Assembly: GCF_056712565.1 (NCBI RefSeq)
Contig: NZ_CM160072.1
DNA length: 64,000 bases
Strand: one strand, 5' to 3'
Made by a program: the position numbers. Every line of letters starts with the position of its first letter. Within the stretch, counting starts at the first letter, position 1. This document shows, one piece after another, positions 54,001 through 58,782 of the stretch.

Positions 54001-57000
54001 CAGAGTCCCTGAAGTGACCTCCGGCAGGGCACTGTCTCAGGCACTCTGTGATAACCCGAACGGTCGTCTCCGGACTGACGGTTGAATTTTCAGCGTTGTT
54101 TTTTTAATGTAAAAAACCGGTTACGGGTAAGGCTGTGAGGAGGGAGTGATGGTGATACGCAAAAAGAAGTGCAGGGACTGTGGAAACGCGATTACTCATA
54201 ATACAGTGTGTTGCCCGTATTGTGGTTCTGTCGACCCCTTCGGCTATTACCGGAATACAGACCGTATCGTTACCATACTGCTGGCACTGATTATTGTGGT
54301 CCTGCTGACTACTGTCAGCGTCAGTGTGTATATACTGTGTAGCTGGTGAGATAACGGTTCATGTATCCCCTGAGCTGACAGTGTACCGGGTATATTAAGC
54401 GTAACCGACAGGTTCTCCTTCATACCATATTAAATTTTTCCAGGTATTGCCGCTGCCTTATTTCGTCCCATACAGGAAAACTCGTCTGGGTTTCTGACAA
54501 ATACGCGAAACTCACAGCCCCTCAATATCAACCACACGCCGTAAGCCGGTAATACCTGAAAATCAGTCTATTACCGCCCGCGCCTCCGTTACCGAACGCT
54601 CAGGTGACAAGACTGAAGCCAGCACGCACTCGTAAAATTTGCGGTCAGTTCTGCCAGCCGGTTGTCAACGGCAGAGTTAAAGGCTTCCAGCTCCGCAAGG
54701 GTAAGTTTATAACGCGTGTGGGAATTCACTTTTCCCGCGTCTCCTGACGTATTACGGGCTGCCACTTACCTGGTGTCCCGCAATACAGCCTTAGTGTTCC
54801 GTTATCGGGGATCCGGACGCACCGCAACAACCGGGGAAGTATTTCTGGTTAGAGCAGTGTCAAGAGGGATTTCTCAGCCCCTCACTCACCGGCTCAGTCT
54901 CAGGGCAGGAGCATTAATACGCTCAGTTCATGTCTTATACAGGAATGGGCATAGGGGGAGCTGGCGTGTCACTGCTGATTTTACGCATCAGCGTTCATGT
55001 ATTTGCACTCTGATACAGAATGCTTCACAGCGCTCTGTTACCGGAGAGATTTACTCTCTTAGGTTATTCTGGCAAATCCTTTACGTTACTCTCTGATGAC
55101 TTCTTATATTTATAATACCAATCAGACAACCTTATCCCATCGGTGATATCAGTCTCCTGCTCGCCAGGAACGGGCTGACTCACTGTAACCACCTCCGAAA
55201 ACAACTCTGCAATTATCAGAACGCCTGCTTCTCTCCCTGTCCTCACGAAAACTATCCCCTCTTTATCGCGCGTGCGTGCGGAAGCATCTTTTCGCACCCC
55301 CGTTACTTTATTCGTACCCCTTATAATGGGGTGTTAGCCAGCCAGACCCGGCATGATTACTGCCCCCAGTCGTCCATGATCCGGGGGGTGATGTCACCGG
55401 GTCTGGTGGGGCGCTGGTAACCGCTAATAGGGGTCAGGTCAGGCACTTTTGCCGGGACCGTCTGTAACGTGGATGCCGGTACCTGCTCCCCGTGGTTATC
55501 TGGTTAACCCATATACAAGGGAGACAGAATGACCGAATCCAGCGATTACGAATCCGTCCAGGTCTTTATCGGCGTTGATGTCGGTAAAGATACGCATCAC
55601 GCTGTAGCCATTAATCGTTCAGGTAAACGCCTGTTCGATAAAGCATTACCCAACGACGAAAACAAACTCAGGTCGCTAATATCTGACCTGAAACAACATG
55701 GTCAGATACTGCTGGTTGTTGATCAGCCAGCTACCATCGGTGCGTTACCTGTCGCCGTTGCCCGCTCAGAAGGAGTCCTTGTCGGATACCTCCCTGGACT
55801 GGCCATGCGCCGCATAGCCGACTTACACGCCGGTGAAGCTAAAACTGATGCTCGTGACGCTGCCATCATTGCCGAAGCTGCCCGTACCCTGCCTCACGCG
55901 CTACGCACGCTGAAACTGGCTGACGAGCAAATCGCCGAACTCTCCATGCTCTGCGGCTTCGATGATGATCTTGCCGCACAGACAACGCAGGCCAGCAACC
56001 GTATCCGCGGCCTTCTGACCCAGATACATCCGGCACTGGAGCGCGTTCTCGGTCCGAGACTTGATCACCCGGCGGTACTCGATCTTCTCCAGCGATATCC
56101 CTCACCAGAAAAACTCGCTTCGCTGGGTGAGAAGAAGCTGGCAGCCCAGCTCTGCAAACTTGCGCCTCGTCTGGGTAAACGCCTTGCAGCAGACATAGCT
56201 CAGGCACTGGCCGAACAAACCGTCGTCGTTCCCGGCACGAATGCCGCTGCCGTAGTACTGCCACGTCTGGCACTCCAGCTCATCACGCTGCGTAAGCAAA
56301 GAGACGAGGTGGCGCTTGCGGTAGAACAGCGAGTTCTTGCTCACCCTCTTTACCCGGTCCTGACCAGTATGCCCGGAGTCGGTGTCAGGACCGCAGCCAG
56401 ACTCCTCACCGAGGTCGCCTGCCGCGCCTTCGCCTCTGTCGCACATCTCGCTGCTTATGCTGGCCTTGCGCCGGTAACTCGGCGATCCGGCTCGTCAATA
56501 CGCGGTGAGCATCCCTCGCGACGGGGTAATAAAGCTCTCAAACGGGCGTTGTTCCTGTCGGCCTTCGCCGCGCTCAGGGATCCGCTCTCCAGGGCTTACT
56601 ACACCCGCAAAATGAGTCAGGGAAAACGACACAATCAGGCGCTTATCGCCCTGGCGAGACGACGCTGCGACGTTCTGTTCGCCATGATGCGCGACGGGAC
56701 TTTTTATACCCCGCAGGCGTCATAACATGCTTGACAACTTAATAGGGGCACCCCCCGGGATTCCGCTACGGCTCTGCCATCGCAATCCCCCCGTTTATCT
56801 CCGGACAGCCAGATTCCCGATTATTTTTTACGTTTCTCCCCGGTTGTTATGCCGGTGAAGGTGGCGCGCTGTTTTCATGACCACACCGGCTGGTTTAACA
56901 ACATCCGGAGGAACATTCTCATGGCTACCCCAGTTTCGCTGATGGATGACCAGATGGTCGACATGGCGTTTATCACTCAACTGACCGGCTTAACCGATAA

Positions 57001-58782
57001 GTGGTTTTACAAACTCATCAAAGTTGGGGGCTTTCCTGCCCCCATCAAAATGGGGCGCAGCTCCCGCTGGCTGAAAAGTGAAGTGGAAGCCTGGCTGCAG
57101 GCGCGTATTGCACAGTCCCGTCCGTAATTTTTAACCACTAACCCTTCGCCCAAAGCAGACGCAATCTCCGGCCTGCCGGCGGCGCTCTGCTGCCTGTTAT
57201 CCCCCGTGAGGAATATGAAAATGAAACAACAGTATCAGACCCGTTACGAGCTGCTCCATGAAAACTACCAGAAATGGCTGACCGGCTTCACCCGGCACGC
57301 CGTATCATGGGGCGTGTGTCATCCGAATATCTACTATTTCCATAATCTGACGCCCGGGTGGGTGTCATTCAATGGCGAAAAACCGGAGATTGCCATCGTT
57401 CCCCAGAGTCTGCACCGGCTGATTTATGGTCCGGACAAACGGAGCTCCCCGTCCCTGGATGATGATCTGGTGGTGAATTTATGCACCAGCGAACACCTGC
57501 TGATTCATCATCCGATGCTGGAAGGGATCCTGCTGTCTGAATGTGAGCGCCTGAAGCAACATTCTCTGGCAAACAAACTGATCAGCCTCTTCCGTCAGTT
57601 TGGCGGCACGGAGTTACGTCTCAAACTGGTCTGGCTCTGCTGGCTTGACTTAATGACCGGAAACAGCCTTGACGACTGGACGAAAAACCTGAAACACAAA
57701 TCAGAAAAAGATCTGGAGCAATGGATCATTGCACGTCAGGGTCAGAGTGAACCACTGACAAATCTGATGGATCAGTACGTGCTTATGGCATACCGTACAT
57801 CGGTTGATGCCGCTCACAGTTGATGTCTGATAACCACAGGGCTGGCAGCAGAAAACCAGCCCTGTGGTAAAATACAGTAATAGCGGCGTACATCAGGCAC
57901 GCCGCTCACTCGTCCACAGATCATATACGTCATTATACTGCGCGATAACGGAGGGCTTCAGCACCCGGTCATTTCTGAGCGGGTATGAATACCATTGATG
58001 ATGCGAAGCAGCCACGGGCAGAAACGTTCTTCACAACCAGGTGCCTCCATCTTCACTGCAGGCTGAATGTGCCGGCTTGTTATCCACCAGAAATGGTATG
58101 CTCCGGTACATGCATACCCCGGAGACTATAAACGCACTGAATCATAGCCTCCCACCTCAGCAGGAGGCAGTCAGCTTTCAGGCGGAAAAACGTTGCAGTT
58201 AAAGATCGTGAGAATCGCTGTTTCGTTGCATAGCAACCCGAACAGTTGTAGTTGAAACATTTTACCTGCATCAGCACATGGTCAGGCGCCGTCTGTATGG
58301 CGTGGAATACTGATGTTTCGGCTGATGGCAAGCCTCATTCTCTGTGGAAACAGGGGCGCGCATTAGCTTCTCAACCAGAGAGTGTCACAAAGACAAATAT
58401 TGCTGAAAATCGCATTCATCGTTCAGGCGTGAATGCCCGGAGACAAAAGCCGCTGTCCGCACAGCCCCCCTCTGATCTGAACAAAAAGCATACACACAAC
58501 AGGCTCACCTGACCCCGAAAAACCATAACTTCAGCAATACCAGTGACACCAGCACGTTACCTCAGTGCCACATCTTCAGACCGCGATCAATCTGAAATGT
58601 GACTATCGGGGCAATATCCCAGTTTTGTGGTACACGATAACCAGAAAACATCCCCTGAACCGCCAGCCAGAAAGACCGGCCACAAAAGGGTTAAGCTGAA
58701 ATCGTTTATGGATTACATCGACATATGCCTGGCAGAGAATGTCCGGAATGACGAGGTTATCTTTGCGGAGATTAAGGCAATG

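Follow-up and report, generated by a model that had tools for sequence, protein, structure and literature searches.

The window analysed here, a stretch of 64,000 nucleotides from contig NZ_CM160072.1 of RefSeq assembly GCF_056712565.1, carries between positions 56921 and 57823 an alpA-like gene followed by a gene for a conserved 200-residue protein, for which UniRef has the placeholder name "Aec62". These two open reading frames (ORFs) form a pair that is conserved in the backbone of a family of integrative islands, and the gene that is cut farther downstream by the insertion sequence (IS) IS100 is an already dead IS relic rather than island cargo. The region as a whole is very probably the decayed backbone of a CP4-44/CP4-57-type island downstream of cobUST in a B2-type E. 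coli (GI-CFT073-cobU), made up of the alpA/200-residue pair, ISEc20 and a dead IS21-like relic into which IS100 has inserted. A preliminary description of the region had seen in it a fragment of the regulatory module of an integrative element with disrupted cargo. The first part of that description stands, in that the pair is a conserved island-backbone fragment flanked by insertion sequences, while the proposed disruption of downstream cargo does not.

The alpA-like gene and the Aec62-type gene

The first gene of the pair (56921-57127, plus strand) encodes a 68-residue member of the MerR-type winged-helix excisionase/regulator family, in agreement with its earlier assignment as an alpA-like helix-turn-helix (HTH) gene. 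The Phage_AlpA profile (PF05930) matches the protein at E 9.5e-7 and 29 bits, above its gathering cutoff of 21, over profile positions 3-51 of 51, and PHROG_66 and PHROG_2790, both "excisionase and transcriptional regulator" families, are matched as well. A GGAGGA Shine-Dalgarno sequence is located 7 nt 5′ of the gene, and the ratio of nonsynonymous to synonymous substitution rates (dN/dS) is 0.05-0.20 against orthologues.

The second gene (57221-57823, WP_000813428) follows on the same strand after a gap of 93 bp. Its frame is open from 57206, and the ATG at 57221, which has a GAGGAA Shine-Dalgarno sequence 7 nt on its 5′ side, is the start used by the Prokaryotic Genome Annotation Pipeline (PGAP) and by all homologues. 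We found 183 homologues of 195-200 residues with 57-62% identity in Yersinia, Klebsiella, Salmonella, Serratia, Hafnia and Pantoea, and the full-length homologues, at 174-204 residues, extend over E. coli, Salmonella, Klebsiella, Enterobacter, Citrobacter, Cronobacter, Yersinia, Serratia, Hafnia, Pantoea, Dickeya, Pectobacterium and Buttiauxella. The Aec62-type family is nevertheless small: when 1.8 billion representative proteins were searched exhaustively with a profile, only 126 representatives came back, many of them fragments, and the named matches to the 200-residue protein in this search came from Enterobacterales only.

Among 50 sequences with identities down to 23%, 17 positions are invariant. 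They include Y16, Q17, G102-x-L104-x-S106-E107-C108-x-R110-L111, W141 and Y186, and C140 is nearly invariant; the invariant polar residues might mark a defined active or binding site. Compared with a 90%-identical E. coli paralogue the gene has a dN/dS of 0.23, and comparisons between genera give 0.10-0.13. The 200-residue ORF is a real gene under purifying selection, and the suspicion that it might not be conserved, which the preliminary description had named as grounds for giving up its reading, was dispelled by homologues in at least 10 genera of Enterobacterales.

The earlier impression that the protein has no recognisable domain was borne out: it has no match in Pfam, NCBIfam or PHROG, and among the PADLOC defence models no family reached E <= 1 for it or for three distant relatives. 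Structure prediction was uninformative at the outset, as a first AlphaFold model based on close homologues only was poor (predicted local distance difference test score, pLDDT, 63.8) and gave meaningless Foldseek matches. Once distant homologues were added, AlphaFold 2 produced a confident model (pLDDT 87.6, predicted template modelling score 0.87), which shows a long N-terminal helix, a β-hairpin (residues 43-61) and a bundle of seven helices. Foldseek searches of BFVD with this model returned nothing, and a profile search of PDB sequences gave best matches of only E >= 0.28. The homology and structure search that had been recommended as a check of the ORF has thus established conservation in Enterobacterales and found neither a family nor a structural relative. 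The one paper found to mention Aec62 names it in a list of island ORFs; our search on Aec62 and on YagK/YfjJ/Gp2 found list mentions only and no functional work.

Genomic context of the Aec62-type family

An AlpA gene lies within 2 kb of the Aec62-type gene in 11 of 11 distinct homologue contexts, and the two are on the same strand in all but one. At loci from Yersinia, Klebsiella, Salmonella, Dickeya and other homologues, the conserved neighbours are AlpA, Gp2/YagK_YfjJ, Zn_ribbon_11, a YeeP-type GTPase, DUF932, antirestriction, RadC and CbtA/CbeA. The island is of one kind in all the distinct contexts fetched. An arm on the opposite strand has genes for a protein of ~290 residues, a YeeP/YfjP-type GTPase, DUF932, IrmA/YfjS-type lipoproteins, antirestriction, RadC and CbeA/CbtA. 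Its counterpart consists of a Gp2-like gene (YagK_YfjJ_C / REP_ORF2-G2P), AlpA, often one or two Zn_ribbon_11/DUF7828 genes and sometimes a UCP030791 gene, then the Aec62-type gene. Past the Aec62-type gene the cargo is variable, and includes bacteriophage exclusion (BREX), type I restriction-modification (R-M) and LlaJI-type systems, type VI secretion system (T6SS) components and fimbriae. An intact relative, the BREX-carrying Klebsiella island of CP025629 (locus L005), retains its integrase. The alpA and 200-residue genes recur as a pair in Enterobacterales, where they occupy the end of the backbone that faces the cargo.

The arrangement varies in several of these contexts. Tandem, diverged Aec62-type paralogues follow AlpA in Yersinia rochesterensis and in one Salmonella (locus L002, 7190-7717 and 8001-8597; locus L009, 6273-6848 and 7001-7525), the upstream copies sharing ~31% (Yersinia) and ~42% (Salmonella) identity with the protein of the window. 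In the context of the most distant member (P0210), AlpA is 1.7 kb away and on the opposite strand; the 1.7 kb between the divergent AlpA gene and this member (locus L010, 5309-7000) are very AT-rich and contain no ORFs. At locus L007, a UCP030791 (PF27752) gene (6348-6890) stands between the zinc-ribbon genes and the Aec62-type gene. By eye, the UCP030791 protein looks like a Gp2/YagK_YfjJ-type protein without the H-x-H of the HUH motif (LRWIWASPP...MLLLLNQDSF compared with LRFVWARE...KKHYHVVLLLNRDTW).

IS100 lies within the remains of an IS21-like element

An intact, 1954-bp copy of IS100, a member of the IS21 family, occupies 58783-60736 on the minus strand. It encodes istA (59628-60650, minus strand, 340 residues) and istB (58849-59631, minus strand, 260 residues), both so named by PGAP, and is bounded by terminal inverted repeats at 58783-58810 and 60709-60736. 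Direct CAATG repeats flank it at 58778-58782 and 60737-60741, and these are the 5-bp target duplication of a simple IS100 insertion. With both genes, both inverted repeats and the duplication present, the element is a full-length IS100, and it is 99.9% identical end to end to annotated plasmid copies. It had been proposed that a reading frame is cut by the right terminus of IS100 at 58781. A plus-strand frame (58627-58839) is indeed broken by the istB-proximal, or right, end of the element, at 58782/58783; the boundary of IS100 itself is at 58783, 2 nt from the position first given.

The sequence that was cut is recognisable once the flanks are rejoined. Positions 58650-58782 joined to 60742-60894 have 88% identity to IS21 istA over 286 bp (codons ~39-133), positions 60891-61079 have 89% identity to the 3′ end of IS21 istB over 189 bp, and the rejoined frame matches residues 80-129 of IS100 IstA in BLASTP at E 7e-5. 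The relic is on the plus strand, with its left istA piece at 58650-58782, of which the last 5 bp (58778-58782) are the left CAATG copy, and its remainder, beginning with the right CAATG copy, at 60737-61079, where istA extends to 60894 and the istB 3′ end spans 60891-61079. About 1.4 kb is deleted between the istA fragment and the istB tail, and both inverted repeats are absent, the IS21 alignment stopping short of either. The relic is thus homologous to istA and istB of IS21 and lacks the intact ends and genes of a functional IS. PGAP labels its parts "IS21 family transposase, incomplete", "IS21 family transposase, frameshifted" and "AAA family ATPase, incomplete".

We searched for the empty site with a query from which IS100 and one CAATG copy had been removed and in which the flanks were rejoined. 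The IS100-occupied junction is present in 821 genomes, and the uninterrupted site is contiguous in 403 E. coli genomes. Avian pathogenic E. coli (APEC) O18 is 99.9% identical across the joined site and has the same alpA, the same 200-residue gene and ISEc20 upstream. In genomes lacking IS100, such as APEC O18, the relic is already internally deleted and without inverted repeats. Because IS100 transposed into the IS21-like relic, what it cut was a dead transposase gene and not cargo; a comparison with intact elements, suggested earlier as a way to name the cargo gene interrupted by IS100, yields none, the empty site carrying the same deleted relic.

In strain MRSN346355 (locus L016, NZ_CP018121, 8991-11424), an IS66-family element is inserted in the same relic ~45 bp from the IS100 site, at a position matching window 58733-58741, which is duplicated there. 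Because the relic of MRSN346355 carries this insertion, the spot has been hit by insertion sequences more than once, independently.

On the other side of the pair, ISEc20 (IS110 family; 55297-56750, plus strand; transposase ORF 55529-56725) lies ~170 bp 5′ of alpA. Its identity comes from the Pfam domains DEDD_Tnp_IS110 and Transposase_20 and from the PGAP name "ISEc20 family transposase". It is absent from MRSN346355 and others, the alignment of MRSN346355 breaking at 55296/56751 and resuming at 56751. ISEc20 may separate alpA from its native promoter.

The hairpin and the stretch beyond it

A hairpin at 57833-57868 begins 10 nt past the stop codon of the 200-residue gene. The perfect 12-bp stem reported in the preliminary description was found at 57834-57867, and is a perfect 13-bp stem if the pair A57833:T57868 is counted; the loop is 10 nt. 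The 86-nt context of the hairpin has a folding energy of -33.5 kcal/mol (z = -4.8 against shuffled controls), and no comparable pattern occurred in 100 shuffles of the window. The stem is followed by AAAATACAG on the plus strand and by TTATCAGAC on the minus strand, so that there is no U tract on either strand and the structure is not an intrinsic (Rho-independent) terminator; a consensus terminator scan did not call it. Stable hairpins are found 0-20 nt from the stop codon of the Aec62-type gene at several unrelated loci, and it is plausible that the hairpin of the window is the 3′ end of a transcript.

Paralogous E. coli modules align, with 89-92% identity, to 56750-57807 only, a span which starts immediately past ISEc20 and ends 16 nt short of the stop codon of the 200-residue gene. 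Because the homology with the paralogues stops at 57807, the hairpin and the ~0.8 kb that follow are locus-specific and outside the module. The stretch at 57869-58649 is unassigned and non-coding, with no Pfam match on its ORFs, and its only similarity among the loci fetched is to the same locus in strain DEC5D. Comparison of the 0.8 kb past the hairpin with island proteins and with every fetched locus (tblastn, tblastx, blastn) revealed no decayed Gp2-like, DUF3987 or UCP030791 gene. One ORF of 71 residues in this stretch (58297-58512, plus strand, WP_001327829.1) is annotated as "hypothetical protein" in some genomes, has no Pfam match and is probably spurious.

The island and its chromosomal locus

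Over 56700-58800 the window has 100% identity to E. coli Nissle 1917 (NZ_CP022686, 705078-707178), and the same sequence is present in many other B2-type strains, including ABU 83972, ATCC 25922 and clone D. According to the Nissle annotation, the gene order runs from the colibactin (pks) island through the core genes cobT, cobS and cobU to an IS-rich mosaic island. In the window, positions 1-30000 are the pks island from clbJ to clbA, and beyond it lie IS3 remnants as well as the core genes ldtA and cobTSU. We take the chromosomal position adjoining cobUST to be the site of the cryptic element CP4-44 in K-12. The counterpart in CFT073 is listed in a published table as GI-CFT073-cobU (c2482-c2528), adjoining GI-CFT073-asnW.

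At the same locus, other strains have AlpA-type, Gp2/YagK_YfjJ-family, zinc-ribbon, YeeP-type GTPase, Ag43 and DUF3987 (YfjI-like) genes. The copy in the window is interrupted by ISEc20, an ISL3 pseudogene, the IS21-like relic and IS100, and keeps only AlpA, the 200-residue gene, a divergent Gp2-like gene and two zinc-ribbon genes from the island backbone. The Gp2-like gene (53380-53949) and the zinc-ribbon genes (52813-53214 and 52415-52825) are on the minus strand, opposite to alpA. In a Salmonella locus (L006), by contrast, all of these genes are on one strand in the order Gp2-like, AlpA, zinc-ribbon, zinc-ribbon, Aec62-type gene. The segment 52415-53949 and the alpA side of the window may be two back-to-back remnants of backbone, or the product of an inversion. 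In E. coli E2865 (locus L015, 10389-14317), the same locus carries an Aec62-type gene and, convergent with it, a DUF3987 (YfjI-like) gene that ISEc8 has split; a GTPase gene and Ag43 come next. The E2865 version of the island is less decayed than that of the window.

There is no tRNA gene in the window, and no integrase is annotated in Nissle 648379-698378 and 693078-719178, two stretches that between them span the window in full and ~7 kb beyond; nor do these annotations contain a tyrosine integrase cognate to the AlpA-family protein. Because no integrase or attachment (att) sites are nearby, the copy in the window has probably been orphaned and no longer plays a part in mobility.

Alternative readings of the locus

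We considered whether IS100 truncated an island cargo gene downstream of an alpA regulatory module, as the preliminary description had it. A plus-strand frame does run into the end of IS100, and in intact relatives cargo starts shortly past the 200-residue gene, but the joined flanks are 88-89% identical to IS21 istA and the istB tail, PGAP annotates them as IS21-family pseudogenes, and the same deleted relic exists without IS100 in 403 genomes. These results refute the truncation of cargo, which we regard as scarcely credible. Just as remote is the idea that the 200-residue frame is open by chance or is decaying: the protein shows no known domain and its gene is located in a heavily IS-ridden, decaying region, yet full-length homologues with the conserved motifs are found in at least 10 Enterobacterales genera, and the dN/dS of 0.10-0.23, the confident predicted fold and the well-spaced Shine-Dalgarno sequence refute this for the family as a whole.

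Given their architecture, with a small HTH gene ahead of one encoding ~200 residues, the two genes could also be read as a toxin-antitoxin or anti-phage defence pair, in which the HTH protein accompanies an effector, and not as an excision or regulation module. The islands that host the pair do carry defence cargo, and the AlpA-like protein weakly matches the MADS MAD1 HTH protein and PDC-M06B. Those matches are far below the model cutoffs (17 bits against 80), the PADLOC models match neither the 200-residue protein nor its three distant relatives, the pair is a constant part of the backbone irrespective of the cargo, and zinc-ribbon genes or a second paralogue often lie between AlpA and the Aec62-type gene. 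On the PADLOC result and the backbone synteny we rejected a defence pair as very improbable. The hairpin, too, admits another explanation, as a mobile or recombination-related DNA element (a repetitive extragenic palindromic (REP)-like repeat or the relic of an IS end) instead of a structure at an RNA 3′ end. The absence of a U tract, the homology breakpoint a short way before it at 57807 and its place in a hotspot of IS insertion speak for this. However, there is no second copy of it in the 64-kb window, even at 3 mismatches, Rfam gave no match over 54000-62500 at E <= 1, and the stable hairpins close to the stop codon at several unrelated Aec62-type loci fit a role at the end of the transcript; a DNA element is an unlikely explanation.

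Proposed role of the pair

The reading that we prefer, of a conserved backbone pair in a decayed island, carries a putative mechanism. The alpA and 200-residue genes, 93 bp apart, would be expressed as a single transcript, and a consensus scan found no terminator-like site between them. The AlpA-like protein would, on the model of AlpA in CP4-57, be a DNA-binding winged-helix excisionase or an activator of the island integrase. The 200-residue protein would be its cytoplasmic, mostly helical partner from the same transcript, the 3′ end of which the hairpin would mark. Some observations speak against this scheme. The consensus scan found no sigma-70-like promoter in 56700-58800. The hairpin, having no U tract and lying beyond the end of homology at 57807, may be unrelated to the operon. 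Co-transcription, moreover, is not universal, because the P0210 context has AlpA on the opposite strand and 1.7 kb away.

What the Aec62-type protein does can be proposed only tentatively. It is possible, if doubtful, that it acts in the excision, replication or regulation of the island together with the Gp2-like (HUH Rep-like) and zinc-ribbon proteins. More speculatively, it might be an unrecognised backbone factor, restricted to Enterobacterales and with no solved fold relative, which could control the excision, Gp2-like rolling-circle-type replication or helper-dependent transfer of CP4-57-like islands carrying BREX, R-M, T6SS and other cargo.

Comparison with known systems

Nothing about the locus itself is out of the ordinary: this part of a decayed island, with its nested insertion sequences, had already been sequenced and annotated, its sequence is unchanged in hundreds of E. 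coli genomes including Nissle 1917, the island has been catalogued, and IS100 is a textbook element. The corrected reading is that no cargo was lost to IS100 and that the insertion sequences are nested within the dead backbone of an island. Some wider interest attaches to the Aec62-type gene, which is well conserved in the backbone of islands through which defence and virulence cargo spreads among Enterobacterales; we found no family model, fold relative or functional study of it in the databases and literature searched.

The IS100 copy has the same length, istA and istB sizes, inverted repeats and 5-bp duplication as IS100 of Yersinia pestis and Enterobacteriaceae. It differs from known copies in nothing unusual, and its target is the remains of another IS21-family element.

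The backbone of CP4-57 and CP4-44 includes alpA, yfjI/yfjJ, yeeP, flu, yeeS and cbeA/cbtA. The island in the window shares with islands of this type its position by cobUST and, at the same locus in other strains, the types of backbone gene; it differs from them in having no integrase, att site or tRNA nearby and in being broken by insertion sequences. In CP4-57 of K-12, alpA is followed by yfjI and not by an Aec62-type gene. AlpA of CP4-57 activates intA transcription and prophage excision. The AlpA-like protein of the window belongs to the same Pfam family, is of similar size (68 residues) and has the same island-backbone setting; it differs in that no cognate integrase adjoins its gene.

A preprint describes a similar class of islands in Pseudomonas, the tmRNA-associated intY-alpA-Gp2-like islands. 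Their backbone contains alpA, RadC and an inovirus-Gp2-like gene, most of its ORFs are unannotated, and the defence cargo varies (bioRxiv 10.1101/2024.08.29.610337). The Pseudomonas islands belong to another host clade; the Aec62-type family was found only in Enterobacterales.

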